A stretch of DNA of 64,000 nt. It comes from a virus. The translations under genes and the position numbers were made by a program. Below are positions 12,309 through 64,000 of this stretch, one piece after another (positions within the stretch are counted from its first letter, which is position 1; each line of letters begins with the position of its first letter). The stretch covers positions 40,663 through 104,662 of IMG/VR virus record IMGVR_UViG_3300035703_000036, one strand, 5' to 3'. Below the pieces are notes generated by a model. It had not been told where the DNA came from. It saw nothing but the letters and a program-made list of their open reading frames with translations, and made no database searches.

Positions 12309-12331
12309 AATCTTTAATGTGATATCAATAT
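12309..12331 (+). promoter_or_regulatory. Putative late promoter AATCTTTA-N3-TGATATCAATAT
   Basis: Same two elements and same spacing as 144-166. Confidence 0.55.
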
Positions 12332-16230: not shown

Positions 16231-16264
16231 AATCTTTAAATTAATCGTTCGATCGCAATCTTTA
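16231..16264 (+). promoter_or_regulatory. Two tandem AATCTTTA motifs (putative late promoters)
   Basis: 16231-16238 and 16257-16264 in the intergenic gap before 16300. Confidence 0.5.
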
Positions 16265-21174: not shown

Positions 21175-21182
21175 AATCTTTA
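21175..21182 (+). promoter_or_regulatory. AATCTTTA motif (putative late promoter)
   Basis: Intergenic, upstream of the 21245 fibre gene. Confidence 0.5.
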
Positions 21183-47375: not shown

Positions 47376-47399
47376 AATACCTCTTACCCTATTATACCA

Positions 47400-47618
47400 T
47401 TATTTTATATTAATGCAATCTCTTATTTTATTCACCGCTGATTGAAATATATCTTCAACTTCTTTTTCAGAGATCATGAGGGCTTTAGCGATTTTGTCGT
47501 TATCTAATCCATCTGGATTTTTTTGAATTAATAATTTTAACGAGTTATTTAGTCTAGGATAGTAGATAAAATCTTCTTCATTTTCAATTCTTAATCTAAT
47601 CTTGTCCGTTACCGCCAC
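47400..47618 (-). CDS. Stand-alone sigma region-4-like HTH protein (72 aa)
   Basis: GLDNDKIAKALMISEKEVEDIFQSAVNKIR matches sigma4.2 hydrophobic pattern; GTG 47618 after AAAGGA. Confidence 0.65.
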   Translation of the reverse strand: MAVTDKIRLRIENEEDFIYYPRLNNSLKLLIQKNPDGLDNDKIAKALMISEKEVEDIFQSAVNKIRDCINIK

Positions 47619-47997
47619 TTTCCTTTTTTCTGAAGAGCAGGACAACTTTTTCTTTTTCTCTGTTTTTGTATTCATTTTCATATTCCTTTGCAATTAATTC
47701 ATACTCTCTTTGAAGCTTGTCTAATCTGTTGGCGATTTTATTTCTAACTGAAGTTATTTTTTCAAGTTTTTGCCTTACAAAATCTAATTCTATTATTGAC
47801 TTCCTATACTCAGAGGCCACAGTTATTATTTCTGGTTTTTTAAGCAGGGTAATATTGTCTATAAGAGTGTCTATTAATTTAGACATATAAGCAATGTCTT
47901 CGTTATAACTTAGCAGGTCTTGTTCCATTATATTTAGCTCTATTTCCATAGCTATTAATCGTCCTGCTAAATCTTTAAATTTTTGTTTATCACTCAT
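47596..47997 (-). CDS. Coiled-coil hypothetical protein
   Basis: Heptad pattern; overlaps neighbours. Confidence 0.7.
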   Translation of the reverse strand: MSDKQKFKDLAGRLIAMEIELNIMEQDLLSYNEDIAYMSKLIDTLIDNITLLKKPEIITVASEYRKSIIELDFVRQKLEKITSVRNKIANRLDKLQREYELIAKEYENEYKNREKEKVVLLFRKKESGGNGQD

Positions 47998-48319
47998 TAA
48001 TTTTTTCCGCAGAACCGCATGACAAGCATTTCATCATGTGAGAATTTTTTCTCTTTATAATTCTGACTTTTTCACTATAGCATTGAGAACAGCTACCAGA
48101 ATTTTGTGTGGATGACTTTTTATCGTTAGCTCCGATTAAATCTTCTAGCTTTTTGTTTTTAGTCATTTCTTTTATGTGATGTTGAGTTTTATACCAAGCA
48201 TCCTCTAAGGTTTGTATTTCTGATTTAAGCTTTTTATTCTCTGACACTAATCCTCTTACTTTCTCTTTTAGTCTTCTATTTTCTTCGGCCAGATATTTTT
48301 CTTCTTTTTTATCACTCAT
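47990..48319 (-). CDS. Coiled-coil protein with C-terminal zinc ribbon
   Basis: CSQC..CLSC. Confidence 0.7.
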   Translation of the reverse strand: MSDKKEEKYLAEENRRLKEKVRGLVSENKKLKSEIQTLEDAWYKTQHHIKEMTKNKKLEDLIGANDKKSSTQNSGSCSQCYSEKVRIIKRKNSHMMKCLSCGSAEKINE

Positions 48320-48371
48320 ATTTTCCCTGCCATTTATAAAATATTACCATAAAACAGCATTTTAAAAACTA

Positions 48372-48397
48372 AAAAGCCCCTTTCGGGGCTATTTTTT
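48372..48397. terminator. Intrinsic terminator
   Basis: AAAAGCCCC-TTTC-GGGGCTATTTTT. Confidence 0.8.
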
Positions 48398-49604
48398 ATT
48401 CATTTGGATTTAAGCAAATGGGAAAACTTCTAAAAAATGATCTTTTACGAGTCTTAGGTTCTACATAATAATTCAGTACTTGAATAGCTTCTGAAGCAAA
48501 ACCTTTATTCTCAGCATAATTATCTTGACCAGGCACAGATCCATTAACAATCATTCTACCTCTGGCATATACCGTGTATTCATGCCAGTGCCCTACCCTA
48601 TAGTAATCTACGACCTTATTAATCTGATTACCTCGTTTAGACATCAGATTTTGAATGGTATCCCTATTTAGATTCTTAAGCTCGTCTCCATGTTCATAGA
48701 CTACTGTGTTACCATATATTTCAGTCTGTAAATACAGCCCTAAAGCAATCTTAAACTTAACATGCTTAAAACCCGCCTGTACACACATGATTTCTAATGT
48801 TTTATAGATAATATATGTCAGGTTTTCTTCGCCAGGATCATTATAGCTTTTATGATCTTCAGGTCGATCATGATTTCCTGTTACGCAAGGAATCTCTACT
48901 TCGATACCTAACGGAGCGGTAGCTATAGCGATAGGCTTAATTAAATCTTCAAACATAGATTCGATGGCTACGGCAGTTTGTTTTGAAGAACTAAATTCAC
49001 TAGACTTTCTAGACTCTTGACCATGAAAGTGAGCGTTTTCGATAATATCTCCAATCATAGCGATAATGATTTTATGAATATTAAAAGACTTACTTTCTCT
49101 TTGGACTTCATCAAGAACTACCTTGGTGATTTTGCTAACTCTTTGCCTAATAACGGAAGCGTCTACTTGATTATTTTCAATACTTTTAATAAGTTTTCCA
49201 TAGTGGACATCTGAAAAAAGAAGTTCAAGGGTCATATTTCTTTTACCCTTGACCGAGCTTTTTTTAGCTTTATTAATCTTTACCTTATTAATTCTTGAAA
49301 CAACACCCTTGATCTCATCCATAAGATCTTCGCGCTTAGTAAGGTAGTCCGTTAAGATCCTATTTTCTTTAGCAGTTTCAGATTTAACCTTTTTTTGTCT
49401 AAAAATATCCTTAATATTCTTAACTTGATATTCCTGATCAGAGGCTAAATCTCTATACCGATAATATGTTTTCTTTATATTATCGGCAGTTTTATTCTTT
49501 TTAAATCTAGTATTGTAAAGCTCGGCAATCTCATTGAATTGGAGACCTTTTTGCTCTCTTTTTTCAATAATAAAAGCGACTTCTTTTTCGTTAAACAATT
49601 CCAT
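48396..49604 (-). CDS. Calcineurin-like metallophosphoesterase with N-terminal HTH
   Basis: SDVHYG, GDIIE, GNHD, HGD, GHWH; N-terminal LQFNEIAELYN. Confidence 0.85.
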   Translation of the reverse strand: MELFNEKEVAFIIEKREQKGLQFNEIAELYNTRFKKNKTADNIKKTYYRYRDLASDQEYQVKNIKDIFRQKKVKSETAKENRILTDYLTKREDLMDEIKGVVSRINKVKINKAKKSSVKGKRNMTLELLFSDVHYGKLIKSIENNQVDASVIRQRVSKITKVVLDEVQRESKSFNIHKIIIAMIGDIIENAHFHGQESRKSSEFSSSKQTAVAIESMFEDLIKPIAIATAPLGIEVEIPCVTGNHDRPEDHKSYNDPGEENLTYIIYKTLEIMCVQAGFKHVKFKIALGLYLQTEIYGNTVVYEHGDELKNLNRDTIQNLMSKRGNQINKVVDYYRVGHWHEYTVYARGRMIVNGSVPGQDNYAENKGFASEAIQVLNYYVEPKTRKRSFFRSFPICLNPNE

Positions 49605-49606
49605 AT

Positions 49607-50173
49607 TTATCCTTGCTGATTTTGATCCTGTTCAAAATTAAGGTTTTTTTCCGTTTCAACAATTTTATAAAGTTCAGTAATTTCTGTAGAAACTTCAGAT
49701 TTATCTGTAGTAATAATATCGCCTACTTTTTTACCTAAAATTAATTGCTTATTTTCTTCTCTAAGAGACGGAATAGAGAACTGAAGTCTAGGCACTACAA
49801 CTTCTCCATTTAAAAGATCTCTAGCAACAACAAAGGAATTGCTATTAACAGTTCCTTCTTCATCTTTTACCAATACACCCTGATCAACTAGGAATTTAAT
49901 TTTTTCTTTTAAATCATTAACTTCATAATCCTCTATCTTTCTAGTTACCTCGTCATTATTTGCAATATTTTTGTCGGTTAAAACATCTACAATTGCATTT
50001 TGTCTGCGAGCTAAAAAAGATAAGTTAACATTGGTACGCTCAATTTCTTCAGCCATAACCTCGATAGATCTTCTGTCTGCCATCACCAGCTCGTTTAATT
50101 GGGCAATTTTGCTTTCTAATTGCTCTAATTTTTGAGCCGCTGTTAAGTTCGTGTTCTTTTTCTCATTTGCCAT
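49607..50173 (-). CDS. Coiled-coil protein with GreA-C/FKBP-like C-terminal domain
   Basis: QLILGKKVGDII..EITELY; N-terminal coiled coil; fold call tentative. Confidence 0.5.
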   Translation of the reverse strand: MANEKKNTNLTAAQKLEQLESKIAQLNELVMADRRSIEVMAEEIERTNVNLSFLARRQNAIVDVLTDKNIANNDEVTRKIEDYEVNDLKEKIKFLVDQGVLVKDEEGTVNSNSFVVARDLLNGEVVVPRLQFSIPSLREENKQLILGKKVGDIITTDKSEVSTEITELYKIVETEKNLNFEQDQNQQG

Positions 50174-50182
50174 AGTTTCCTC

Positions 50183-51202
50183 CTAATCTACTTGTTGTAT
50201 TCTTGACCCGCCTTTTTTAGAGGCGAGAACTCTTGCTAGTACATTTTCAAATCCGGATTTGTCATTTCTACCTGAATCCATAGCTTGTTGCATTTCATAG
50301 TGAGAAGCTATTTGTTCGGCAGTAGGTAAAGGTCTGGGATTTTCTGGCACAGCTTTAACCCCTGTTGCAATTTGCGAGTTAGCTCTTGCCAATTCTTCAG
50401 ATGACATTTTACTTGCGGGCTTTCTATTTTTCATTTTTTTCAAATCTTCTCTGGCGATTTCTTCAATGCTCTTACTTACATCAGAAACAGGAACTACATT
50501 TTTTGCAGGTTTTTGAATTGAAGTAGCTCTTAACGGTTCTTCTTTTTTTGCCGGAGTTTTAGTTTTCAAAGAAGGTTTAACGGTAGAAGTTTGCGCCTGA
50601 TTGATCGGAGCCAATCCTTTAGGCTTTGTTGGTCTAGTTGTTTCCGACATTTTTTTAGGAACAGTATTTTGAACGGAAACAGACTCTTCTCTAGCGCTTG
50701 ACTCGGTAGATAGGTAGACATCATCTCCATTAGTACTTGCGCCTTGGGTTCCTTTGTAAGATAATTGCTTTAAAAATTCCACTTCAACAGTATTGAAAGG
50801 CAATTTAACTGAAGATTCTACTACATGAATAGTTTCGGTTTTTTCCGTTTTTTCAGATTTAATTCCTAAAAGAATTTCTAATCTTTGAACGATAAATTCC
50901 TTGATCTCTTTTTCGACATTTTTAAGCGCCGTAGGGTTGGCTTTAATTCCTTCAAATAGATTGTGCTTAATCAACATCTCATAGAGTCTAGCCTGTTCTA
51001 ATCTGACCATAGCTTCGCCAATAACGCTTCTTTCTCTTTCCGTTACAGTTTTGTAAGGAATCTTAACCGGCTCGGTTCTAGGCTCATCTTCCATAGTTTC
51101 AGGAATATCATCCTCATCAATAGAATCCGCATATTGTTTATTAACCTCTTCTATCAGATCGATTTCTGAAGTGTCTTCATTATCCCAATCAAAATTACTC
51201 AT
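50183..51202 (-). CDS. Hypothetical protein with acidic N-terminus and low-complexity linker
   Basis: 339-aa ORF, AAGGAG SD, TGTGGTATAAT promoter. Confidence 0.75.
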   Translation of the reverse strand: MSNFDWDNEDTSEIDLIEEVNKQYADSIDEDDIPETMEDEPRTEPVKIPYKTVTERERSVIGEAMVRLEQARLYEMLIKHNLFEGIKANPTALKNVEKEIKEFIVQRLEILLGIKSEKTEKTETIHVVESSVKLPFNTVEVEFLKQLSYKGTQGASTNGDDVYLSTESSAREESVSVQNTVPKKMSETTRPTKPKGLAPINQAQTSTVKPSLKTKTPAKKEEPLRATSIQKPAKNVVPVSDVSKSIEEIAREDLKKMKNRKPASKMSSEELARANSQIATGVKAVPENPRPLPTAEQIASHYEMQQAMDSGRNDKSGFENVLARVLASKKGGSRIQQVD

Positions 51203-51232
51203 AAATAAAACTCCTTAACATATTATACCACA

Positions 51233-52942
51233 TTATGCTTCACAAGCCTTACATTCGTCACCTCTTGAAGCGCTATCGGCCCTTAAAACGCTAGAAGTTC
51301 GGCAATAATACAAAGTTTTTATCCCCATTTTCCATGCCTCTAAGTGAACTTTGTGAATAAATCTAGGATCTGCGTTAGCCGAGAAAAATAGATTTAAACT
51401 TTGAGATTGACATATATATTTTTGCCGTTGAGATGCCTGCCTAATGATGGCCATTTGATTAATCTCATACGCCGTTTTAAACACTTCCTTTTCTTCAGGA
51501 GAAAGAAAATCTAAATGTTGTACAGATCCGTATGCGGCATTGATCGATTTCCATACTTCAGGTATATCTCTATTATGTTTTTTAAGAATAATTTTTAAAG
51601 TTCTATTTTGTCTTAAAAAGACTCCTTTAGCTGTTTTATCTGTATAAGCATTAGCAATAATCGGTTCAATTCCTGCGCTAACGTCTCCGCTTATAATTGA
51701 GTTAGATCGAGTAGGAGCTACAGCTAAAAGATGACTATTGCGCATACCCGTGCCTTTTAACCATTCCGGCTCACCATAGGCTATTGCTAGTTCTTTGCTG
51801 GCATTTACCGCTTTTTCTTTAATACTTTTAAACATTTCATTATTTAATGCCATAGCTTGAAAAGAATCAAAGGGAATCATTTTTTCTTGCAGCAGAGTAT
51901 GCCACCCTAATACGCCTATTCCAATAGCCCTACCTTTGACTGCGCTTCTAATAACTTTTTCAAAACCAGACATAGCTGAAGCTTTTTCTATAAATTCTGA
52001 CAAAACCGCATCAAGAAATAGTGTCGTATAAAAAACTAAGTCTGAATCTTTCCATTCATCGTATTTTGCGGCATTTAGAGAAGATAGGCAGCAAATAAAA
52101 CTATGGTCGCTATCAGTAAATAAAGTAATCTCGCTGCAAATATTGGTCATGCCTACTTTTAAATTATTAAGGTTATAACCTTCAGGATTGTTTTTGTTTA
52201 CTGTATCAGAAAACATAATATAGCTTTCGCCGGTTTCCATTCTGGTTTTGAGTAGTTCTCTCCATTTTTCTCTAGCTTCTTTTTCCCCATCTACAACTTT
52301 TTTCATAAAACTGTCGGGAATAATAGAGCAATGGTGTGTGTTTAGGCATTGAAAATTAACATCGCCTTCAGGCCTTCTCATTCGAATAAAATGAGGCCAA
52401 TCTTTATGTGTAATACTAAGATTTGCACTGTACGCACCTCTTCTGACTTGACCTTGACTAGTTACCGCTCCGGTAGCGTCATATATCTTAATCCATCCTA
52501 AGATACTTCCTGTTTTACCGTTTAATCCACCTTTAATAGGAGATCCACTAGGTCTTAGTCTATCAAAATTAATTCCTACACCGCCAGAAGCCGCGCTTAA
52601 TTTTCCTGCTTCTCTTACGCCGCCGAAAATTTCATCTAGGTTGTCTCCCACATCTGTTCCATAGCAGGAAATAGGAAGAGCCCTGTCAGTTCCCAGATTA
52701 CTTAAAACTGGCGTAGCTGGGCATAGCCAATTTCTCCACATCAAATCAAAAAAAATGTCTTCCAGATGATTTGTAGCATTATAATTACTTAAATAAGAAG
52801 CCGCAGATTTGGCTACTCTTTTGTACATTTGTTTTGGAGTTTCATTGTCAAGCAAGTATCCTCCGCAAACTGTAGTATAACTTTCTTCGCTGTACCATTC
52901 AGGGGCTTCCCCTGTTTTCTTTAATTCCTCTAAATTAGACAT
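51233..52942 (-). CDS. nrdA: Ribonucleotide reductase class Ia large subunit
   Basis: PATPVL, ISCY, GGVG, QGQVRRGA, TNICSEI, CCLSS, APTRSNS, KTLYY, C-terminal CKACE; ATG 52942. Confidence 0.95.
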   Translation of the reverse strand: MSNLEELKKTGEAPEWYSEESYTTVCGGYLLDNETPKQMYKRVAKSAASYLSNYNATNHLEDIFFDLMWRNWLCPATPVLSNLGTDRALPISCYGTDVGDNLDEIFGGVREAGKLSAASGGVGINFDRLRPSGSPIKGGLNGKTGSILGWIKIYDATGAVTSQGQVRRGAYSANLSITHKDWPHFIRMRRPEGDVNFQCLNTHHCSIIPDSFMKKVVDGEKEAREKWRELLKTRMETGESYIMFSDTVNKNNPEGYNLNNLKVGMTNICSEITLFTDSDHSFICCLSSLNAAKYDEWKDSDLVFYTTLFLDAVLSEFIEKASAMSGFEKVIRSAVKGRAIGIGVLGWHTLLQEKMIPFDSFQAMALNNEMFKSIKEKAVNASKELAIAYGEPEWLKGTGMRNSHLLAVAPTRSNSIISGDVSAGIEPIIANAYTDKTAKGVFLRQNRTLKIILKKHNRDIPEVWKSINAAYGSVQHLDFLSPEEKEVFKTAYEINQMAIIRQASQRQKYICQSQSLNLFFSANADPRFIHKVHLEAWKMGIKTLYYCRTSSVLRADSASRGDECKACEA

Positions 52943-53918
52943 CGGCCATCCCCTCTTCTTTGTCGTACATCTTATCCCAGTCAATGTGTCCCTTAGAATA
53001 CTCAGTTACTTTCTGAGCGAAAAAATCTTGAAATTCTACGCCAGAACTAATATACTCGAACCATTCCATTTTTGCAAGAGATTCTTTATCAATATTTTTC
53101 CAGTTAACTTTTAAGTTTAAATCCTGAAGTTTTGTATTAGTTCTGTGCCTAATAAAGTTTTTAAGATCTTTAGGATCTAACCCTCTAATTTCTCCTAAAG
53201 AAAAAGCTTTATCAATAAAATTATCCTCTAATTCCACAGTTATTCTAGCAGCTTCATAGATTTCTTTTTTTAAATCATCCGTCCATATTTCAGGATTTTC
53301 TGAAATAAACTCTCTAAATAGTCTGCATCCAGCTTCCGAATGTAGGCTTTCATCTCTAATTGACCAGCTTACAATCTGAGATACACCCTTCATCATATTA
53401 AATCTACTGAGATTTAATAAAATCGCAAAAGAGCTGAATAAATTAACGCCTTCAGTAAACCCAGAAAAAATAGCCAAACTTCTAGCTATGTCTTTCTTGT
53501 CCTTGGTTTTTACATATTTTAATCTATCTAATTTGGCCATAGCCGAATCATCTTGAAGAAAAGCTTTATAATCATCCAAACCTAATGAGTCATTTAGATA
53601 ACTATATCCCCACATGTGGACACATTCCATATTGCTGAATGCGCTAGACATCATACATATTTCAACTACCGGAAACCATTTGGAAACTCTTTTACTCCAA
53701 TAATCATTGACATAAGTTTCAGTTTGAGTAAAAGATTTTAAGATCTGTCCTAATACTTGTCTTTCTGATTCAGTTAGATTTTGATTCCAATCTTGTATAT
53801 CTCCTGACATGGCAACTTCCGTAGGTAGCCAATGAGCTTGGTTTTGTTTTTGGCAATAATCAAACGCCCAATCATATTGAAAAGGCTTGTAGTAATCCCT
53901 AGTCTTAGTTAGAGACAT
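52935..53918 (-). CDS. nrdB: Ribonucleotide reductase class Ia small subunit
   Basis: HWLPTEV, ECVHMWGY, EGVNLFSSF, RDESLH, DFFAQKVTEY. Confidence 0.95.
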   Translation of the reverse strand: MSLTKTRDYYKPFQYDWAFDYCQKQNQAHWLPTEVAMSGDIQDWNQNLTESERQVLGQILKSFTQTETYVNDYWSKRVSKWFPVVEICMMSSAFSNMECVHMWGYSYLNDSLGLDDYKAFLQDDSAMAKLDRLKYVKTKDKKDIARSLAIFSGFTEGVNLFSSFAILLNLSRFNMMKGVSQIVSWSIRDESLHSEAGCRLFREFISENPEIWTDDLKKEIYEAARITVELEDNFIDKAFSLGEIRGLDPKDLKNFIRHRTNTKLQDLNLKVNWKNIDKESLAKMEWFEYISSGVEFQDFFAQKVTEYSKGHIDWDKMYDKEEGMADV

Positions 53919-53930
53919 ATATATCCTTAG

Positions 53931-54590
53931 TTATTTTTTGTTTGTTTTAAGTAGCTTCTTTTGTTCTCGTAAACGCTTTCGCTCTTCTTTCTCCTCAAGT
54001 TCACGGCGTTGTTTTTGTAGATGGTTTTGGTATAGCTTTTCAAATTCTATATTCCTTTTATTGATAAACTCTTTATCGAATTCATTTTCAGGATTAAGAT
54101 GAAAACCGTTATCCATTTCTTGATCAATCGCAAAATCATTCCATCTATCTCTGAAAAAGTTTTCTTTTGTACTTTTCCAGCTATGACAACTTTTTTGTCC
54201 TTTAGGAAGATCTTTTGATTTTGTACTACATAGTACTTGAAGATTAGATATTTTGCAAAATATCCCTCTGGCGAGTTCGTCGTAAGTCATCTTTTCTTCC
54301 TTTTTCCATAGAGGAACTACAGGTTCAATGTGATCTACTTGAACATTCTTTTGGGAAAACAATCCCTCACAATGAGCGCATCGGTATCTTACTTGGTTTT
54401 TTTTGCCAACAGATCCATCTTTAAGAGTCTTAGGAGGAAGCTCTACTCTGGCGGCCTGTAGAACTTCCTTCATTTGAGGAGAAAGTCTAAAAGATCTACG
54501 CATAGCTCCTTTTATTCTTCCTCTTTCTTCAACCCACCGACCATTTTCGTCGTATAAAGATTTTTCTTTTTTATTTAGTTTCTTCGGCAT
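53931..54590 (-). CDS. HNH endonuclease
   Basis: YRCAHC..VQVDHIEP..NLQVLC..CHSWKS. Confidence 0.85.
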   Translation of the reverse strand: MPKKLNKKEKSLYDENGRWVEERGRIKGAMRRSFRLSPQMKEVLQAARVELPPKTLKDGSVGKKNQVRYRCAHCEGLFSQKNVQVDHIEPVVPLWKKEEKMTYDELARGIFCKISNLQVLCSTKSKDLPKGQKSCHSWKSTKENFFRDRWNDFAIDQEMDNGFHLNPENEFDKEFINKRNIEFEKLYQNHLQKQRRELEEKEERKRLREQKKLLKTNKK

Positions 54591-54873
54591 CGCCTGACTT
54601 TTCCTTAATCAATAAATTAATATAAGCTAATTTATCTTTTAAAGCAGACAAAGCATCCCTATATGGGCCCGACAATTCTGATAACTTATCTTTAGTAGCC
54701 TCTAACTCTTCATCGTTTTTCTTTGCCAAAATAGTATCTTCTCGATGTTTAGCGTAAGTCATTAGAGTTTTTTCTAGATCGGCAATGTTAAGGCCGTCTA
54801 CTGAATCAGTAAATGACCCGTATTTTTTTTGAATTTTTTCTTTTTGCGTTCTTGAGCTTAATTTTTCAGACAT
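54571..54873 (-). CDS. Helical hypothetical protein
   Basis: GGAGG SD. Confidence 0.7.
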   Translation of the reverse strand: MSEKLSSRTQKEKIQKKYGSFTDSVDGLNIADLEKTLMTYAKHREDTILAKKNDEELEATKDKLSELSGPYRDALSALKDKLAYINLLIKEKSGDAEETK

Positions 54874-54884
54874 ATTTCCTCCTG

Positions 54885-55238
54885 TTAAAAACTATCGTCC
54901 GTTCTATAGTCAAATTTAGGTAATCTTTTTAAACAATCATTTTTATTTAAAAAAGCAATCGTAGATTCCACTATACACAGAACACTCTGATGTTCCTCTT
55001 GAATTTTTATTTTGCTAACTCCTAGATATGTTGGAAATAGTTTATTTGCCATCATACTTTTTGCGGAGCTAGTAATTTGATGTAAGCTATTGTAATCCAT
55101 ATTAAAATTAGATTTACTTAAATGAGTATATTTATCAAGCAAATTAATTAAAGTTTTAACTTTATCATTATGATCTTGGCTTTCGATATTTTCAAAAAAT
55201 CTAAGAACATCTGCTCGTATCTGATCTTCTAAATTCAT
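54885..55238 (-). CDS. Hypothetical protein
   Basis: Follows a TGGTATAAT promoter. Confidence 0.7.
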   Translation of the reverse strand: MNLEDQIRADVLRFFENIESQDHNDKVKTLINLLDKYTHLSKSNFNMDYNSLHQITSSAKSMMANKLFPTYLGVSKIKIQEEHQSVLCIVESTIAFLNKNDCLKRLPKFDYRTDDSF

Positions 55239-55256
55239 TTTTACCCCTTTCCATAA

Positions 55257-57311
55257 TTATACCATACTAACAGAACTTTCTTCACCGTTTCTTATAACTG
55301 TAACAACTTCTGACATCATTTCTTTTAATTCTGAACTGTGATCTACCAATACGATTGATTTATTAGTGTCTATATTTTTTAGTAATTCTAAACACTGAGT
55401 TTTATTAACTGAATCTAGACCATCAAATGGCTCATCTAAAATAAAGATATTTAGTCCCTTACCGGCCTTATCTTCAATCATATCAATTACAGCTAAATCT
55501 ACAGCTAGATCAATTGCTGTTCTTTCGCCTCCGGATAATGTTTTAATAGGGATATTGCCTTCACCGTCTAAATTTACTACCGCATTAACTTCTTCTTTGA
55601 TAGTTCCGTTTTTAGTTTCCTTAGAAGATTCAAAATAAATAGTAGCGCCAGTCATATTAGGTATTCCGGATAAAATATCTGTGGATTTATTGCCAATATA
55701 ATCTAGGGTATCTTGAAATACTTGTAAGGTGTAGGATTTTATTAATCTTTTAGATTCTTCTGCTATCAGAGATTTTCTAGAAAGAGCTTCTATATTGTTT
55801 TGAATATTCTCTAGTTCTTTTTGGTTTAACTGCTCCATTTCTGCTATTCTTTGAAGATTATCCTTAAAATTTTTAAGTTTTATGAAATCCATTTGCTTTA
55901 AAGACTGTTGGGTTGATATGATTTTGTTAAGATTATTGATTAGATCATTCTCTAATCTAATAAGCTCGTTATATTCCTTATCAATCGCAGATAGCTTACC
56001 TATATATTCTGATTGAGCAAGTGAGTTTTCTAGATTTATAGTTTTGTCTAGATTTGCTTTGACGCTATTTAATTCGGCTATTTCTTGTTTTATTTGTAAG
56101 ATTTTTACATCGACTTCAGAACTTGCATTTGTAGATCTTAACTTATTTAATATATCCTGAGCCCTACTTAAATTAAGATTAATTTCTTGTTCTTTACTTA
56201 TTTCCAATAATAGGCTTTCTATTTTTTTAGCCGAATCAACAATACTAGAACTAATCTGATTTAATTTATCTGCCGCAGAATTACCTACCCATATTTGAGA
56301 ACATGTCGGACAAGAGTTGTCTTCTATGTGTTTTTTTTGATCATTTAATTCCTTGCTTTTAATTTTTAGCATTTCAACAGTTTTTTTATGCGTGTTGATT
56401 GTAAATAATTCTGAGTTTAAGTTTTTAATTGCCGTTTCTACTTTAAATATCTTTTCATTATGTGCCGCCATAATTACAGCTTTATCTTCATTAAGCTTTG
56501 TTAATTCGTATTCGGCCTCTTTAATCCTATTAAATTGAGTATAATCTGGGGTTTTAATAATCGGTGCGATTATAGATTTTTTTAAATTTTCCTGTGTATC
56601 GGATAGTTTTTGAATATTCTTTTTAACTACCTCTAATTTTTCTAATGCCTCTTTTTCTTCTTCCTCATTCCATTCGGGCTTAGGAGGCTCAGTTACTATT
56701 CCATATCTAAGCTGGGTGTTTTTATCAAAAACCACGCTTTTTTTATTATTTAATTCATTTAAATTTAAAGTAATTTTTTTAATGTCTTCGTCAATCTTGT
56801 CAATTTTTTTAGACCATTCTTCAAGACCTAGTACAGAAATTAAAAAATCGTAACTTTCTTTAGCGGTTAAATTTAAAAAAAAGCCTCCCTCTTTTTGTTT
56901 TTTATGAAACATTTTTTTAAAAAGCTTTCTATTGATACCTATAATTTCATCAAGTTTTTCTTCGGCTATTTTTGAATTTCCTGATACTGACTCTCCATCA
57001 ACCTCTATAGTTAAACCGTCTTTTTTTGACCTGCTTATAACTATGTTTTTCTCATTTATAATAAACTTTGCAGATACGTTAATACCATCTTTTGTGACTC
57101 TAGATTGTAAAGCTGTTGCCGGTATTTCATTTACGCCTAACAAATAATCTAAGGCATGGAATACAGTAGATTTACCAGATCCAGAAGATCCTCCGGTATT
57201 AAGATTTTTTCCGTCTACTTGAACTATTTTGCCTAGAGTATCAAAATTTATAACTTGTTTGTCTACAAATCTTCCAATACCACTAAATGACAATTCCTTT
57301 AACGTAAGCAT
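55257..57311 (-). CDS. sbcC: SbcC/Rad50/gp46-like SMC ATPase
   Basis: GSSGSGKST, CPTC hook, LSGGE, ILDEPF, VDH. Confidence 0.92.
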   Translation of the reverse strand: MLTLKELSFSGIGRFVDKQVINFDTLGKIVQVDGKNLNTGGSSGSGKSTVFHALDYLLGVNEIPATALQSRVTKDGINVSAKFIINEKNIVISRSKKDGLTIEVDGESVSGNSKIAEEKLDEIIGINRKLFKKMFHKKQKEGGFFLNLTAKESYDFLISVLGLEEWSKKIDKIDEDIKKITLNLNELNNKKSVVFDKNTQLRYGIVTEPPKPEWNEEEEKEALEKLEVVKKNIQKLSDTQENLKKSIIAPIIKTPDYTQFNRIKEAEYELTKLNEDKAVIMAAHNEKIFKVETAIKNLNSELFTINTHKKTVEMLKIKSKELNDQKKHIEDNSCPTCSQIWVGNSAADKLNQISSSIVDSAKKIESLLLEISKEQEINLNLSRAQDILNKLRSTNASSEVDVKILQIKQEIAELNSVKANLDKTINLENSLAQSEYIGKLSAIDKEYNELIRLENDLINNLNKIISTQQSLKQMDFIKLKNFKDNLQRIAEMEQLNQKELENIQNNIEALSRKSLIAEESKRLIKSYTLQVFQDTLDYIGNKSTDILSGIPNMTGATIYFESSKETKNGTIKEEVNAVVNLDGEGNIPIKTLSGGERTAIDLAVDLAVIDMIEDKAGKGLNIFILDEPFDGLDSVNKTQCLELLKNIDTNKSIVLVDHSSELKEMMSEVVTVIRNGEESSVSMV

Positions 57312-57559
57312 TAGTCCCCCTTAGAAAAGCGTTCAGACTCCTTATTAACAACCTCATTCATAATCTCTATATCTTTTGTAAGACCGCCATTATTTACAAA
57401 TTGAGTGGTTTTGGTAGTAGGGGCTCCAAGTTGTCTTTCTAATTTTCCAACGCTACAGGCTCCGCAATCTAAAAAAGGCGGAATATCCTTGTGTGTCCGA
57501 AACATTTTCTCTATTTTATTGTGGCAATCAGGATTGTTGCAAGCAAAAAGTATCATCAT
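57311..57559 (-). CDS. FmdB-like zinc-ribbon protein
   Basis: FACNNPDCH..E..CGACSVGKLERQLGAP; ATG 57559 with AAGGAG SD. Confidence 0.7.
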   Translation of the reverse strand: MMILFACNNPDCHNKIEKMFRTHKDIPPFLDCGACSVGKLERQLGAPTTKTTQFVNNGGLTKDIEIMNEVVNKESERFSKGD

Positions 57560-57597
57560 AAAATTCTCCTTGTTCTTATCAATTATACCACAAAAAC

Positions 57598-57624
57598 AAA
57601 AAAACCTCCCCGAAGGGAGGTTTT
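57598..57624 (-). terminator. Intrinsic terminator (cUUCGg loop)
   Basis: AAAACCTCCC-TTCG-GGGAGGTTTTTTT on minus strand. Confidence 0.85.
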
Positions 57625-57640
57625 GAGGGGAGGGGCACAA

Positions 57641-58624
57641 CTAGTAAGAGCGAATAATATTCTCTCGTCTAGATTTCGTTAAACTTTCTTTAACTTCACT
57701 GATTTTCTTTTCAATTTCTTCCATTGTTAATTTAGAATTTGCAGCACAAGTTTTTTCTTTTCTAGTTTTAGTTTCTTCATCAGAGTTATAGTAGTAAGAT
57801 CCTGAAGATTCTGTTTTAGTACATTCTGGCCCAAATTGACCGTTATTTTTAATAAAATCATTTAGACTCATATTTCCTTTATTTGTTTGAATATTTACCG
57901 TAATACTTAAAGGCGCAGTATTCATAGGACAATTAGAGTATTCTACTGTTAGAGTGAACAAGAAAGCGTCGTAATTTACCGAATGTCTACCTTCTCTTAA
58001 CGAAGCGTCACATTTTACGTTTACAACAGCGTCAGCATATCCTTGCTCAACAGCATCTTTTCCAGTTAACCAAAGTTCATTTTCATAAGCAGATCTGTAT
58101 GATTGTAGAGTTTGTTTTCCATTAGTACGATCAACAGTAATTTTATCTAACTCATCAATTCTGCGTAACCATAAACCATATCTAGAATCAAGCTGAGATA
58201 AACCGCCGCCAAACTCACCAGTAAAGCCACCTTTAGCTTTATGAGACATTAGAACTCCGTTTCCAACAATCAATCTTTCGCCTAGATTTTGAACAGCTTG
58301 AAAGCCCATCGAAGCCGCAAATAAAGTAATGGTATGAACAGGACGATTTAAACCTTTAACAAATTCAAAAAGTTCGAGACCCGCCTGAATGCTTCCTCCT
58401 GGCGTATCTAGAAATAAATAGATCGGATATCCATTTGGAAGATCTGAATCAATTTTCATGATTTGCTGCATTACAATAGATACTGATTCGCTATTAAAAT
58501 CTTGATTTAGAATAACAGTGTTGTCAGCGGATAAAGTAATTTCTTTGTTTGCCGTTTTCTTTTCTTCTGCCATGACTGCAAAACTGAAAGTCATAGCAAT
58601 GATTAAGGTTACAATTTTTTTCAT
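57641..58624 (-). CDS. Exported ClpP-fold serine protease
   Basis: Signal peptide MKKIVTLIIAMTFSFAVMA; LFLDTPGGS, FAASMG, LMSHKA, ELWLTGKDAVEQGYAD; four Cys. Confidence 0.8.
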   Translation of the reverse strand: MKKIVTLIIAMTFSFAVMAEEKKTANKEITLSADNTVILNQDFNSESVSIVMQQIMKIDSDLPNGYPIYLFLDTPGGSIQAGLELFEFVKGLNRPVHTITLFAASMGFQAVQNLGERLIVGNGVLMSHKAKGGFTGEFGGGLSQLDSRYGLWLRRIDELDKITVDRTNGKQTLQSYRSAYENELWLTGKDAVEQGYADAVVNVKCDASLREGRHSVNYDAFLFTLTVEYSNCPMNTAPLSITVNIQTNKGNMSLNDFIKNNGQFGPECTKTESSGSYYYNSDEETKTRKEKTCAANSKLTMEEIEKKISEVKESLTKSRRENIIRSY

Positions 58625-58665
58625 AGTTTCTCCTTTTTTATTGCCTTAATTAATATTACCACATA

Positions 58666-58938
58666 TTAAAAAATTTTTCGGCAATTTAATTGATAAGTTA
58701 TTTCGTGACCGCTGGAATTTCTTATAGAGATATAGTCTTCAAGTGAATTCAATGTGTTAGAGTTTTTAATAAAAACACTATACTGTAAACCGTTGATTTT
58801 TCTATCCATGTAAATTGGCTGATTGGCATATCCCGAAAAAGCCATTTCTTCCATTTCATTTTTAAAAGTACAAGATATAGTTACAATTTCCGCATAACTA
58901 TTGCAGCAGATAAACAAAAAAACAAATAAAAATCTCAT
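58666..58938 (-). CDS. Small exported protein
   Basis: Signal peptide MRFLFVFLFICCNSYA; Cys pair in mature part. Confidence 0.7.
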   Translation of the reverse strand: MRFLFVFLFICCNSYAEIVTISCTFKNEMEEMAFSGYANQPIYMDRKINGLQYSVFIKNSNTLNSLEDYISIRNSSGHEITYQLNCRKIF

Positions 58939-58946
58939 AAACTCTC

Positions 58947-59288
58947 CTAAAAAGATATGCTTATATTTAAAATGCCTCTAGTTTCAGATCCGTTAAATCT
59001 ATGTAAAACATCAGGTCTAATAAATATGTTTTCATCTAAATGAAATTTTAAAGATTTTATTTTAGAGGTATCTATAGATCCAGAAGCTGCCATTTGAGCG
59101 GCAGACAGTACCATTACGGCGGATTCTTTATTTAAAGGAGATTTTCTTTCTACGTAATTTGTTATATTTTTAGAATATAATTTAGCTGTTTCAGTTTGGG
59201 TGAAAGCCTTGAAAGCTTCTCTCGAAGCTCTTATTCTATCGTCGGCATTGGCTGAAAGGGAGACTATGAATATAATTAAAAATCTCAT
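58947..59288 (-). CDS. Small exported protein with C-terminal beta-signal-like strand
   Basis: Signal peptide MRFLIIFIVSLSANA; ends GILNISISF. Confidence 0.65.
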   Translation of the reverse strand: MRFLIIFIVSLSANADDRIRASREAFKAFTQTETAKLYSKNITNYVERKSPLNKESAVMVLSAAQMAASGSIDTSKIKSLKFHLDENIFIRPDVLHRFNGSETRGILNISISF

Positions 59289-59319
59289 ACAGGGATTGTA
59301 TCATGCAAACATTAATGTG

Positions 59320-59955
59320 TCAAGAATTTCCGTCATCTTCCTCTTCATCTTTGATTGCCGCTAATTTTTTCAATACGTTACCTACAGTGCTATCATTAAT
59401 TTCAATAGTATTTTCACCTGTTTTTTTGACTTCAACGTTCGAGCCTACATTTACATTGATTGTGGGTTTATTTGGAGTTTCGATAGATTGATTAGGATTA
59501 GCTAAAGTATGGAAAGTCTTAATTGACTGATAGTACTGAGTTAATAGTTTTGTATCCAATCCTTCAATTAAACTATTATCTTTTGATGATAAATACTTTG
59601 TAAACTTATCTTCATAGTATTTATTTAATCCCATCATAATTGAGGATAGGGTATTCATAGAACTTATCTTTACTTGGCTCATTTTTTTTGTCATATTTAA
59701 AGCTAAGTCTTCGTAATACTTCATTCTTTTTTCGTGCCATTTCATCTTATTGCTTACATAAAGAATAAGATCTTTTTTGTCGGAAGTAATTTCAGCTATT
59801 TCGTTATAGCTTTTGCCTGACATATAAAGCTCAAACCATTTGAAGACTTTATTATCATCAATTTTAGTTAGACCAGGGCATCCATTTTCTTTAAAACTTG
59901 CCAATGATTTTTTATCGTCTTCAGTAAAATCTTCGCTATATTCTATCAGATTCAT
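59320..59955 (-). CDS. HTH DNA-binding protein, possibly terminase small subunit
   Basis: FELYMSGKSYNEIAEIT..W..KR followed by helical domain and INVNV tail. Confidence 0.5.
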   Translation of the reverse strand: MNLIEYSEDFTEDDKKSLASFKENGCPGLTKIDDNKVFKWFELYMSGKSYNEIAEITSDKKDLILYVSNKMKWHEKRMKYYEDLALNMTKKMSQVKISSMNTLSSIMMGLNKYYEDKFTKYLSSKDNSLIEGLDTKLLTQYYQSIKTFHTLANPNQSIETPNKPTINVNVGSNVEVKKTGENTIEINDSTVGNVLKKLAAIKDEEEDDGNS

Positions 59956-60277
59956 ATAGGACTCTTTTTTTGTTTTTAATTATAATTTTTGTATCTTCAA
60001 AGAATAAAGTTTTAATCCAGCTCTCTATTCTTTTGCATTTTATATCAAATAGTTCTTTGTCATCTTTTTTTCTAGGAATTGTTATGTTCGAAATAAATTC
60101 TACTTTTCCACTTCCAATAATTCCATTTTCACCTTCAGTAAAATCATATTGGATCTCTAATTCTTTAGGATTAAATAGGCCATAAAACCATATTTTCATA
60201 TTGTTAATTTGAAAATCTGACATCTGACCCGATAGAACGAACATTTTTCTATGTTCTTCAAGTATTTTTTCGCTCAA
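59936..60277 (-). CDS. Hypothetical protein
   Basis: Coupled to sbcD, GGAG SD. Confidence 0.65.
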   Translation of the reverse strand: MSEKILEEHRKMFVLSGQMSDFQINNMKIWFYGLFNPKELEIQYDFTEGENGIIGSGKVEFISNITIPRKKDDKELFDIKCKRIESWIKTLFFEDTKIIIKNKKRVLYESDRI

Positions 60278-61245
60278 TTTAAGCTCCCTAAATATTCTTT
60301 TATTTCTTTCTTTTCAAGACCGTTGACTGTATCAAAATAAGATTCCATAAAAGAGAAGATGTCTTCTTTTGAAACTTTGTCGCTTTTATCTACTAGGCTA
60401 ATCCTATCTGTAGGTTTTGCTTTAATATTAGCTTTGCCTTTATATTTCTTTTTCATCTTAGTGATCCAAGCAGTTTTGCCGTTAAGTTCTAAGTAAATTC
60501 TACCAGTAGGAAGTTCAGCCTCTTCATCTCCTTCATTTAAGATAATTTTTGAGATAGGAGTAACAATTTTTTCTGTTGAAATAAACTTAGCTTCAGCAAT
60601 AGATCCATCCTCATTATGAGTAAATAGTTCTATGCCCTTTTTTTCATTTGCGTCCGATACGGAATCCCATTTAGGAGTCCCTATGTAGATACATTTTCCT
60701 ACTTTTTGCCTTTTATGGATATGTCCTGAAATAATACAATCCACATCTAATAATGCTGGATCTATGCCATCCGGAGCGTAAAATCCATTTTCATACTGAG
60801 AACCGGTAAAAGTTTGGTGAGCAATTAAAGTCTTACTTCCTCCAAATTTTTCATTTATATCGGTAACATATTTTGCATGATCAGAATAATACGGAGCGTA
60901 AACTATATTGTCTATTTTTCTAACTGAGTCTACTACGGTCAATCCTTCGATTGAAAACGGAAGTAAGGCGTGTAGACCTTCGGCTTCTTTAGAGCCTTGC
61001 ATATCATGGTTTCCTACAAGATATACTACTTTAAAATTTTTAACCATTTCCTGCAGCCATTTTTTCCAAAAAGCTAGTATTTCTACCCTGACAACAGCGT
61101 GGTTATGGAACCCGTCGCCCATAAACTCTATTTGCTGAGCGCCTTCGTCATACGCGGTTTTAAGTACGAAATCCATAAGCTTTTCTGATTCGCTTAAATT
61201 TCCAATTTGAATATGAGGATCGCCTACGCGAAGTATTTTTTTCAT
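60274..61245 (-). CDS. sbcD: SbcD/Mre11/gp47-like nuclease
   Basis: GDPH, GDGFH, GNHD, AHQ, SGHIH, YIGTP. Confidence 0.9.
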   Translation of the reverse strand: MKKILRVGDPHIQIGNLSESEKLMDFVLKTAYDEGAQQIEFMGDGFHNHAVVRVEILAFWKKWLQEMVKNFKVVYLVGNHDMQGSKEAEGLHALLPFSIEGLTVVDSVRKIDNIVYAPYYSDHAKYVTDINEKFGGSKTLIAHQTFTGSQYENGFYAPDGIDPALLDVDCIISGHIHKRQKVGKCIYIGTPKWDSVSDANEKKGIELFTHNEDGSIAEAKFISTEKIVTPISKIILNEGDEEAELPTGRIYLELNGKTAWITKMKKKYKGKANIKAKPTDRISLVDKSDKVSKEDIFSFMESYFDTVNGLEKKEIKEYLGSLN

Positions 61246-61532
61246 TTAACAAAACTCACAAATTCTGGCTCTACTATAATAAACTTTTTCTCAATACCTT
61301 CAGCGTCATAAGTTTTTTTAGCCCAAGGAGCTGAATGAAGAACTTCTTCCGGAATAAAGACCTTCTGTCCGGTAACAAGCTTAAAATCTTTGCCATCATA
61401 ATCCATAAGAACTTTAAGTCCAATTAGTGTTGATTTTTGTTTGATTGAAGCAAACCCTCTAGATTCGCTAGACTCAATTTTCATTTTCCCTTCGTAAGGC
61501 TCGCAAACAATACAGCGGTTTAATGATTTCAT
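61242..61532 (-). CDS. groES: GroES-like co-chaperonin
   Basis: MKSLNRCIVCEP..ESRGF..GLKV..GQKVFI..IIVEPEFV; 96 aa. Confidence 0.6.
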   Translation of the reverse strand: MKSLNRCIVCEPYEGKMKIESSESRGFASIKQKSTLIGLKVLMDYDGKDFKLVTGQKVFIPEEVLHSAPWAKKTYDAEGIEKKFIIVEPEFVSFVK

Positions 61533-62569
61533 AAATCTACTCCTTTTAATCTTATCACTTTTCTTTCAATTACTTTTAATTTTTGAGCGGCATAATATAT
61601 CTTGTTAGATATATCAGTCTTAATAATATTATCTTCAACATTTGAGGAATAATCTTCTGTTTTGTCATAAACCCCAAATCCTTCTTCATCGTTTGACGAC
61701 TCCACACTGACATATCCTGAGCCGTTCATAAGATGAGTTAAATAAGATTCGGTGATAGGTAGCTTAGGTATTTTTTTTCCTTCTTTAGCATCTACTTTAA
61801 ATGACTCGTTTACTGCCTTTGTAAGATCTTTAATATCTTCGATCCCTTGTCTAAACTTGATTGAATTAGCTCGGTATAGGATCTTTCTGTCAGAAGGGTA
61901 CATTTTAAGAAAGCTTTTGGAATATTCCTCGATCATATTTCCAACCATACGGCCAATACAAACAGATCGCCAAACTTTTCTATATTCCCCAGCATATTTA
62001 TCTACACCGCTACTTAAGCCATAAATACAAATATCAATTAAATCAATTAAGGATAAATGAGATGCGGGAGTTTTTCTGTAAAAAATTTTCGCTCGATTTA
62101 TTGCTAGGGGGATATTATTTTCAATTAGGACATTTCTGGCTTTAATAAAATTATCATAAGTTTCCTGTAGAACTGGAGGAAAATTGTCTCCCCAATTGTC
62201 TACAATAAAACTAATAAATTGATAGTTTATATTGTAAGTCATTAATTTTTCTACATTTTTTTCTTTTATAGTAGGAGTAATCTGCTTGTTAAATACGGAA
62301 GATTTCTCTCTAAAATACGGCCTAGCACTTAGCATATTACCTTTATCTTGAGAGACCATTTCGATAAATCTGTAATAGATATCTTTAGATCTAGAGTATT
62401 TACAGGCTAGTCTTTTAAATCTTTTTTCTAAAGCAAACAGTTTTTCGACCTGTTCTTTTTGTTTGTCAGGGTGAGTTAATTTATTTTTCTTATTATTTTC
62501 TAATACAAAATTAACTTTTTCTGCCAGCTTCTGAAATTCTCTATCTGATTTTATTAAATTTTTTCCCAT
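61529..62569 (-). CDS. Sigma70-family RNA polymerase sigma factor lacking region 4.2
   Basis: ARNVLIENNIPLAINRAK..LSLIDLI..GLSSGVDKY (region 2), region-3-like YVSVE, ends KLKVIERKVIRLKGVDL*; ATG 62569. Confidence 0.85.
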   Translation of the reverse strand: MGKNLIKSDREFQKLAEKVNFVLENNKKNKLTHPDKQKEQVEKLFALEKRFKRLACKYSRSKDIYYRFIEMVSQDKGNMLSARPYFREKSSVFNKQITPTIKEKNVEKLMTYNINYQFISFIVDNWGDNFPPVLQETYDNFIKARNVLIENNIPLAINRAKIFYRKTPASHLSLIDLIDICIYGLSSGVDKYAGEYRKVWRSVCIGRMVGNMIEEYSKSFLKMYPSDRKILYRANSIKFRQGIEDIKDLTKAVNESFKVDAKEGKKIPKLPITESYLTHLMNGSGYVSVESSNDEEGFGVYDKTEDYSSNVEDNIIKTDISNKIYYAAQKLKVIERKVIRLKGVDL

Positions 62570-62576
62570 ATTATAA

Positions 62577-64000
62577 TTATACCACAATTATAGGGCCGCC
62601 AGATTCTCGGTAAAACCCTATTCTTTTCTTTAGCATAGACAATAAAATATGTTGGGAGCTTACGTCAAAATCGTATATTGTAGAATAAGGTTTAGGATTG
62701 TGAAAATCCTTAAATCGACTGATCTCTAATTTTCTGGTGGATCTACCCATAGCCCCTTGTTTAGTCATAATCTCACTAGAACCTCCACACCAATTAATGA
62801 CATGATGAGTAGGGTATAAATTGGTTCCGGTAGCTATTGCCTTTGTTCCTATTAATACTTTTATTTCACCCTTATTAAATCTAGCCACTTCTTCCGTTGT
62901 ATCAACTTGTTTAAGGCCGTATTCAGCGGCTTCTTTTTTAGATGCGGAATGTACGTAAGAAAAAGGTACATTTAAAAGATTGGACAACATTTGAATTTGA
63001 ACTAATTCCTCAACTAGTATTAGAGTTGATTCTTGTTTTACATTCCACGCTGAATTAGCTATTTTTGAGGCATATTGAGCTATATTGTTATTATAAAGAA
63101 AATGCTCTCTTTTACATTCTAGAGGATCTTTTGTATACAGGGTTGATGGAGAAAAGGTTTTAATTATTTTAAAATGAAGCGGACAAAGATAGTTTTTATT
63201 AATAGCGTCTTTAATTTCCATCTCAAGCACGACTTTACCTATAATTGACTGGAGCAGAGTTTCCGTTCCGTCTCCTCTCGTCTGAGTTGCTGAAACAAAA
63301 AATCTATAGGGAATTTCAGATAAGACTCCATGACACACAGTTTCTAACTGTTCGGCTCCAAAAGTGTGAGATTCATCAACAAGTAGGAGTTGTTTATTTT
63401 TAAAAAAATCCTCTTCTTTAGATCCGGCCTTGATCATAGCGAGGCTTTTACCTATTGCAATAGTCACGGATTTGTTGATTTCTTTTTTTCCATTTCCAAA
63501 TCTTCCTACGTATTTTGATCCTAAAGCTTCGGTAAAATCCTTATAAAGCTCTTGAAATATAGATTCGCTAGGTGTGACCACAACAGTTCTTAATCCCATA
63601 TCTCTAGTTGTTTTTAATAATATATAGGATTTTCCACATCCAGTAGGAAGACTGACGGCGCCATGTTTTTCTTTTATAAGCTTTTCTTCGGCTTCTATTT
63701 GATAAGGATATGGCTCAAAAAGAGGTTTTTTAGCCCAAGGATAGGGCTTGGGGGTGGGATAGACAATATCGTTAGAGACGATCTCCGCGTTGTCCACATA
63801 AGGCAAAAGACCTGGTTTAATTTCAAAAGCTTTTACTTCCGAATTGTACGTGACTAAATTTCCATTAAGTTTCGACTCTAAGTCTTTAACTGAATTTTCC
63901 CACGCTAAAGGATTTTTCTTTTTAAACCATTTGTTATTTTTAAGTTTATCTAGCCCATATTTAATTGAAGTTCTTTGAAATTCAAACTTTTTAAGTAAGA
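62577..64000 (-). CDS. uvsW: SF2 DNA helicase (UvsW-like); 5' end outside window
   Basis: PYPYQ, LPTGCGKS, VDESH, SAT, TGTNL, QGAMGRSTR; frame stays open from 63806 to the window edge. Confidence 0.88.
   Translation of the reverse strand, partial: LLKKFEFQRTSIKYGLDKLKNNKWFKKKNPLAWENSVKDLESKLNGNLVTYNSEVKAFEIKPGLLPYVDNAEIVSNDIVYPTPKPYPWAKKPLFEPYPYQIEAEEKLIKEKHGAVSLPTGCGKSYILLKTTRDMGLRTVVVTPSESIFQELYKDFTEALGSKYVGRFGNGKKEINKSVTIAIGKSLAMIKAGSKEEDFFKNKQLLLVDESHTFGAEQLETVCHGVLSEIPYRFFVSATQTRGDGTETLLQSIIGKVVLEMEIKDAINKNYLCPLHFKIIKTFSPSTLYTKDPLECKREHFLYNNNIAQYASKIANSAWNVKQESTLILVEELVQIQMLSNLLNVPFSYVHSASKKEAAEYGLKQVDTTEEVARFNKGEIKVLIGTKAIATGTNLYPTHHVINWCGGSSEIMTKQGAMGRSTRKLEISRFKDFHNPKPYSTIYDFDVSSQHILLSMLKKRIGFYRESGGPIIVV

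Follow-up and report, generated by a model that had tools for sequence, protein, structure and literature searches.

A truncated phage sigma factor and a separate sigma4-like protein in relatives of Myxococcus phage Mx1: a possible two-piece late sigma factor

Introduction

How can a phage sigma factor work when it ends before the part that reads the -35 box, and does a separate small protein of the same genome take the place of the missing part? The question is raised by a stretch of 64,000 nucleotides, bases 40663-104662 of the viral record IMGVR_UViG_3300035703_000036 (104,662 bases; 34.7% G+C; about 66% complete), which we call the window. It contains a gene for a sigma factor of 346 amino acids (aa) that lacks region 4.2 and, some distance away, an open reading frame (ORF) for a stand-alone sigma4-like protein of 72 aa. 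This main observation, a truncated sigma factor together with a separate sigma4-like ORF, is confirmed by the analysis presented here. The interpretation attached to it in the initial annotation of the window, namely that the phage rebuilds a two-piece sigma factor, is partly supported.

The obvious point of reference is the late transcription of phage T4, where gp55 acts as the sigma factor, gp33 as a co-activator bound to the flap and gp45 as the clamp (PMC7892883, PMC2988020). We tentatively suggest that the two proteins of the window form a late sigma factor of a functionally similar kind, and we weigh this proposal against readings in which the small protein serves another purpose.

The sigma factor ends inside domain 4

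The sigma gene lies on the minus strand at 61529-62569 (ATG at 62569, stop at 61529). Its product ends in ERKVIRLKGVDL, the final residues before the stop being RLKGVDL. From its N-terminus the protein consists of a primary-sigma-like part (about residues 1-130, region 1.2-like by fold), followed by regions 2, 3, 3.2 and 4.1. Region 2 was recognized with a profile of 26 homologues, which matches SigK, SigA and RpoD at 114-201 with E-values from 4e-4 to 1e-3. Regions 3, 3.2 and 4.1 were traced with a profile built from the C-terminal 120 residues at 32 loci, which aligns to SigA 239-342 (E 0.008) and to FliA 94-198 (E 0.023); these E-values are marginal and the alignments coherent. Every alignment of the C-terminal profile ends at the same place, the 'LRyG' motif of sigma factors, which reads 'LKG' in the phage.

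The AlphaFold2 model of the protein (mean predicted local distance difference test score, pLDDT, 77) contains a helical body up to residue 284, with three helices within 225-284. A disordered acidic linker (285-307) comes next, and then only two more helices, 311-328 and 333-341. When the model was searched with Foldseek, all matches were primary sigma factors (best E 1.4e-3, probability up to 1.0, about 355 columns). No Pfam sigma model gave a significant match to the sigma protein or to 25 homologues searched singly. The helix-turn-helix (HTH) of region 4.2 is absent from the 346-aa protein, whose last residue stands 3 positions past the Gly of 'LKG'. This bears out the initial annotation, which had described a sigma factor with clear regions 2 and 3 that stops in the 4.1 helix, ahead of the HTH binding the -35 box. 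No other match to sigma region 2 or region 4 was found in the 104.7-kb record.

It might be suspected that the stop codon is an error and that homologous sigma factors are full length. Homologues number 701 at E<=0.001, and the 120 matches listed measure 302-377 aa. In all tails, from more than 50 loci, the reading frame ends at most 13 residues after the Gly equivalent to that of 'LRyG'. The same stop point is found in Myxococcus phage Mx1, where the protein ends in LLAMKGVVL, and in relatives at 28-34% identity (tails KMKFG.., LKFG.., LKNG..). Because the stop is shared by so many loci, including such distant relatives, the truncation is a fixed trait of the family; identical truncation across the more than 50 loci and the 120 listed homologues rules out an error. 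The last 13 residues are, moreover, nearly invariant among the homologues, and this degree of conservation suggests that the tail may serve as a binding surface.

The 72-aa protein resembles an almost complete sigma4 domain

The second gene, at 47400-47618 on the minus strand, starts with GTG at 47618. It is a real and conserved gene: the start point is the same in close homologues, and an exhaustive HMMER search returned 172 representative clusters of the small protein, nearly all of them 65-95 aa long and stand-alone. The AlphaFold2 model is of high confidence (pLDDT 94.7) and comprises four helices (3-13, 27-33, 40-47 and 51-70). The initial annotation took this ORF for little more than a region 4.2 HTH. 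The sigma4-like HTH is there, spanning approximately residues 38-70, but residues 1-35 add to it an extra helix, an H2-like helix and the strongly conserved motif (D/E)xDFIxxP(R/K)xxNSL. With this N-terminal motif and the H2-like helix, the protein amounts to almost an entire sigma4-like domain and is more than a piece consisting of 4.2.

The claim that the DNA-contacting Arg residues of the HTH are replaced holds for most of the family. Among 72 family members, acidic residues prevail on the recognition helix in place of basic DNA-contacting ones: Asp or Glu occupies position 51 in 62% of the members, position 52 in 67%, position 53 in 85% and position 55 in 60%. These acidic positions were matched, by eye only, to the Arg residues of sigma70 that contact the -35 box (R584, R586, R588). 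The mean net charge of the small protein in the same 72 members is -2.9.

A non-sigma HTH, of the LuxR or terminase type, had been named from the outset as the alternative identity of this ORF. Searches of the 72 members against Pfam gave Sigma70_r4 in 12 cases (best E 8.5e-6), more than any other family, along with r4_2 in 4, the PhyR sigma-like family in 3 and GerE in 5, so that sigma region 4 outnumbers GerE by 16 to 5. The protein of the window itself matches only GerE (E 0.01). Among the top 25 PHROG families listed for the 72 members, 'sigma factor' families lead, with matches to 11 and 6 members. In viral clusters of the ESM-Atlas (74-79 aa), PF04545 is assigned to 63-83% of the members with scores of 0.93-0.94. 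In BFVD, the model found its best match, over its whole length, in a viral protein annotated as 'sigma-70 region 4' (E 0.039, probability 1.0, template modelling score 0.64, 78 columns). When residues 31-72 were superposed, about 40 residues fitted many sigma4 domains, and some of the LuxR type, with deviations of 1.7-2.4 A and Z scores of only about 3, and Foldseek matches of the model in the PDB have E-values above 1. As a whole, the family-level tests favour sigma region 4 over LuxR, and the protein also has more likeness to sigma region 4 than to the HTH of a terminase. A direct comparison of the small protein with the sigma tail by hhalign found no similarity.

As a separate observation, one metagenomic protein of 295 aa (P0167) consists of the small sigma4-like protein fused in frame to the downstream DnaQ-like exonuclease. 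It may be a real fusion, hinting at a link to the replisome, or the product of a lost stop codon.

The two genes occur together

Mx1 (169.6 kb) is the only related phage record that was found for the sigma and 72-aa genes; the metagenomic relatives mostly measure 150-177 kb. Gene order around both loci is common to the window and Mx1. At the sigma locus it runs helicase, sigma, small ORF and SbcD-like phosphoesterase, and at the 72-aa locus metallophosphatase exonuclease, coiled-coil ORF, small HTH ORF and DNA polymerase III alpha. Mx1 thus carries both the sigma gene, the product of which is WNM70309.1, and a gene of the 72-aa type. The latter is located at approximately 157,455-157,697 of OR576727.2, on the reverse strand, and is absent from the deposited annotation.

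All 18 long contigs with the sigma gene contain the small ORF as well, at a distance of 12-15 kb. In the opposite direction, five of the seven further contigs found via the small protein have the sigma gene, and the remaining two are 15% and 31% complete. The two genes therefore do co-occur in related genomes.

Two promoter motifs

The initial annotation spoke of -35-independent promoter classes in the window. One of them is real. The extended -10 consensus TGGTATAAT is present in 13 copies in the window, where 0.9 are expected, and in 15 copies in the record. Most copies stand 15-19 nt before start codons of genes of the replication module, with a Shine-Dalgarno sequence in between, so the leaders would be only about 10 nt long. 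A copy at 62576-62584 on the minus strand precedes the sigma gene and is probably a host-sigma70 promoter. Only 6 nt separate its end from the ATG of sigma, so that the transcript of this gene may have no leader. Another copy (47391-47399, minus strand) follows directly after the stop codon of the 72-aa ORF, 15 nt before the gene of the DnaQ-like exonuclease.

The second class, represented by AATCTTTA, fares less well by count and better by position. Across the whole window the element is not enriched (20 copies against 12.8 expected). Fully intergenic copies, however, number 6 against 2.2 expected, and all six are in the sense orientation, 20-66 nt before structural genes. We regard it as a candidate late-promoter element. 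On the plus strand, a copy at 12309-12316 lies 66 nt before a 1046-aa structural gene, two copies 26 nt apart (16231-16264; starts at 16231 and 16257) lie 61 and 35 nt before a 564-aa gene, and a copy at 21175-21182 lies 62 nt before a 733-aa gene. A divergent pair occupies 127-151, with 127-134 on the minus and 144-151 on the plus strand, at a divergent junction. Inspection by eye revealed no shared -35-like element at a fixed distance from AATCTTTA. In five relatives the element is 1.6 to 4.7 times as frequent as a reversed control, and in the closest relative copies are arranged, as in the window, in one tandem and one divergent pair. Further copies are present in the same record approximately 3.8 kb and 25 kb before the window start. 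The motifs fit a scheme in which host sigma70 would transcribe early and middle genes, using extended -10 promoters, and a single short element would serve the late genes.

A possible two-piece late sigma factor

In our opinion, the best reading of the two genes is that of a two-polypeptide late sigma factor, functionally like gp55/gp33 of T4. We hold it tentatively, as a real possibility which still falls somewhat short of being probable. The 346-aa protein would supply core binding, promoter melting and promoter recognition through regions 2 and 3, while nothing of domain 4 is left in it beyond the two initial helices (region 4.1). The 72-aa protein would be a sigma4-derived domain that replaces region 4 on the beta-flap of host RNA polymerase, and the near-invariant 4.1 tail of the sigma factor would be in contact with it. 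We infer, then, that the two proteins bind each other and that the small one binds the flap. Owing to its acidic recognition helix, the 72-aa protein would read no -35 box, and the holoenzyme would consequently use single-element promoters, for which AATCTTTA before the virion operons is the candidate. Both genes would themselves belong to early or middle operons under host-type extended -10 promoters (TGGTATAAT); this timing of expression, as well as the promoter that the sigma factor would read, we infer in the same way. A more ambitious version can be imagined, in which domain 4 of a primary-type sigma factor was split at the 4.1/4.2 boundary and the free acidic piece not only completes the phage sigma factor on the flap without reading DNA, but also competes with region 4 of host sigma70, so that late promoters are activated and -35-dependent host promoters silenced. 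We consider this version quite improbable.

Several results are consistent with the pairing. The two proteins align to complementary stretches of one FliA chain (1rp3_A), the sigma profiles to residues 94/100-198 and the profile of the small protein to 202-236. Prediction of the complex of the 72-aa protein with the truncated sigma factor, which the initial annotation had called for, gave a score of 0.53, graded as weak support, against 0.00 for the best control. At least 67% of contacts are common to the individual runs, and the pLDDT of the partner does not fall below 77. Of 80 solved complexes, 58 reach the pass mark of the procedure, as do 2 of 110 mismatched pairs; scores that pass at 0.60 or below were obtained for only 7 of the 80 solved complexes, yet for both of the passing mismatches.

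There are also many observations that weigh against a two-piece sigma factor, and some of them qualify the very results just given. By the tool's own description, a score of 0.53 belongs to a range in which wrong predictions outnumber correct ones, except where the pairing was already likely for other reasons. The two proteins also look like parts of one solved domain, and the prediction may have passed through resemblance to sigma4 structures already known instead of true binding. Any two core genes of one phage clade would be expected to co-occur, so that co-occurrence is no proof of a functional link. No fusion of the sigma factor with the small protein was seen among the 120 listed sigma homologues (search range 190-606 aa) or among the 172 representatives of the small protein, and the sole fusion encountered joins the small protein to the next gene, that of the DnaQ-like exonuclease. 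About 14 kb separate the two genes, which belong to different operons and overlap with other genes, not with each other. The sigma stop is overlapped (ATGA) by a conserved 96-aa ORF (61242-61532, minus strand), which directly follows sigma in about 40 of 51 loci. The start of the 72-aa ORF is overlapped by the end of a gene for a 133-aa coiled-coil protein (47596-47997, minus strand), which stands directly before the small ORF in at least 10 of 18 relatives and, by position, also in Mx1. The structure of the small protein is a further difficulty. Its four helices are predicted with confidence to form a unit by themselves, equivalents of H1 and H2 among them, and no obvious slot for the sigma factor's 4.1 hairpin is left in this fold. 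As the protein possesses an H2-like helix of its own, it is not simply the missing half, and a clean fission becomes doubtful. Finally, when the small family was compared with solved structures by profile, the best match was the C-terminal domain of NarL, which is of the LuxR type (E 0.004); FliA, WhiG and other sigma4 domains came after it. Of the proposal in the initial annotation, that a two-piece sigma factor is rebuilt from sigma70-derived parts, domain anatomy and co-occurrence speak in favour; a clean fission is doubtful, and the two genes share no operon.

Another reading is that the two genes are functionally unrelated, which we regard as somewhat unlikely. The sigma factor without region 4.2 would then be self-sufficient and recognize one promoter element, like T4 gp55 in basal transcription, and the 72-aa protein would work in the replication module together with the coiled-coil protein or the DnaQ-like exonuclease, or as a small regulator. 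Such a role would suit an ORF that is embedded in a conserved order of replication genes, overlaps the coiled-coil gene and in one relative is fused to the exonuclease; the LuxR-type matches (NarL, and GerE for 5 of the 72 members, among them the window's own protein) fit it as well, and co-occurrence of core genes is uninformative on this point. Yet sigma region 4 exceeds LuxR in every family-level tally, and the acidic recognition helix speaks against ordinary binding to an operator. Against it also stand the complementary cover of one sigma chain by the two proteins and the weak support from the prediction of their complex.

The small protein might alternatively be a factor of host takeover, a free sigma4 mimic which displaces region 4 of host sigma70, either on the tip of the beta-flap or otherwise. 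Promoters dependent on the -35 box would be shut, those of the extended -10 type (TGGTATAAT), being independent of the contact between region 4 and flap, would stay active, and the truncated sigma factor would work alone as a -10-only factor. In function, the protein would resemble AsiA of T4 or gp39 of Thermus phage P23-45. The latter provides a precedent, as it reportedly binds the flap and favours extended -10 promoters. The sigma4-like fold of the 72-aa protein, the acidic recognition helix that makes reading of DNA unlikely, and the great uniformity of the extended -10 promoters, with the excess in the window and in the record given above, all argue for this explanation. It leaves the near-invariant 4.1 tail of the phage sigma factor unexplained, however, and the weak complex prediction placed the small protein against the phage sigma factor with controls at 0.00. 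We consider takeover unlikely, and return to the two-piece late sigma factor as the reading to be compared with known systems.

Relation to known systems

Sigma factors composed of two subunits are already established in T4, SPO1, B. subtilis and Tn916. The gp33/gp34 pair of SPO1 is one of them. Others are SigO/RsoA of B. subtilis and Sig7/Sig8 of Tn916 (bioRxiv 10.64898/2026.10.01.756105). The arrangement proposed here would share with these three pairs the distribution of region 2 and region 4 functions between two polypeptides. In those pairs, however, the split falls between domain 2 and domain 4, the two genes are neighbours, and a -35 box is still recognized. In our case the break is inside domain 4 (4.1/4.2), 12-15 kb separate the genes, and acidic residues prevail on the recognition helix.

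The proposed likeness to T4 consists in a phage sigma factor without the domain reading -35, a small acidic protein that would occupy the sigma4 position on the flap without reading DNA, and a candidate single short element of late promoters. In neither system are the genes linked, and in both they are surrounded by genes of replication and recombination. Unlike in T4, both pieces here seem to show sigma70 ancestry. Gp55 is a region-2-only protein of approximately 185 aa, in contrast to the 346-aa sigma factor with regions 1.2 to 4.1. Unlike gp33, the 72-aa protein matches profiles of sigma region 4; gp33 is said to have been found structurally unrelated to sigma4 by Twist et al. in 2011. PHROG families of late co-activators do not dominate among the matches of the small protein, and one member matches a 'late transcriptional activator' family with E 0.018. 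A missing match to gp33 would still be compatible with distant kinship. A clamp-binding tail, as in the T4 system, was not identified here. Surveys of jumbo phages treat gp33 as an HTH that docks to the flap (PMC7824862).

In comparison with RpoD and SigA, the sigma model aligns to SigA chains over about 350 columns, and regions 2, 3, 3.2 and 4.1 are alignable up to 'LRyG'. The differences are the lack of region 4.2 and of significant Pfam sigma matches in single members. Another likeness is to AsiA of T4 and gp39 of P23-45 (PMC3950348), in that a small phage protein goes together with extended -10, -35-independent phage promoters; unlike the 72-aa protein, AsiA and gp39 are not sigma4 look-alikes. 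Three features together are distinctive here: the break falls within domain 4, both pieces seem to descend from sigma70, and the recognition helix is acidic. None of the two-piece sigma factors of T4, SPO1, B. subtilis and Tn916 is reported to be divided within domain 4 while its two parts still show their sigma70 descent.

If our assumption is true, the pair would represent an evolutionary intermediate between a complete sigma factor and the gp55/gp33 arrangement of T4, and the role of region 4 in docking to the flap would be separable from the reading of the -35 box. The family concerned is large, with more than 700 clusters of the sigma factor besides the representative clusters of the small protein counted above. 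One cultivable member, Mx1 on Myxococcus xanthus, makes the idea directly testable.

Neighbouring genes and other ORFs

Other candidates for transcription proteins in the window were considered and found no support. The ORF at 35123-36013 (minus strand, 296 aa) is unsupported as a second protein with a region 2-like part. The profile of its family (18 members) matches neither a solved structure nor the sigma family described here, and the only hint is a weak lead in the Atlas to Sigma70_r2 clusters (0.93, 122 shared features). The ORF at 49607-50173 (minus strand) encodes a 188-aa protein with an N-terminal coiled coil and is kept in 14 of 16 relatives. Its C-terminus, with the consensus ..GKKVGD......EI.EVY.I, resembles the C-terminal domain of GreA by eye. 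As a Gre-like protein it is unsupported: searched with a 14-member profile, the PDB gave matches to coiled coils alone, and Pfam gave no family of Gre proteins. The 96-aa ORF after sigma was likewise examined as an alternative partner of the sigma factor; it is conserved, but it has no family match in Pfam, PHROG or PDB.

The order exonuclease, coiled-coil gene, small ORF, DnaQ-like exonuclease and Pol III alpha is kept around the 72-aa ORF, including in Mx1. In the window, the small ORF is the last of an overlapping trio, in which the coiled-coil gene is preceded by a gene for a 109-aa protein (47990-48319, minus strand). No Pfam match to DksA/TraR was found for this protein. A coiled coil forms its N-terminal part, and its C-terminal part carries CxxC-x17-CxxC, spaced as in the DksA/TraR zinc finger. 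Ahead of the three-gene unit, the gap at 48320-48395 (minus strand), read by eye, contains a terminator-like GC hairpin with a T run and the extended -10-like sequence TGGTAATAT.

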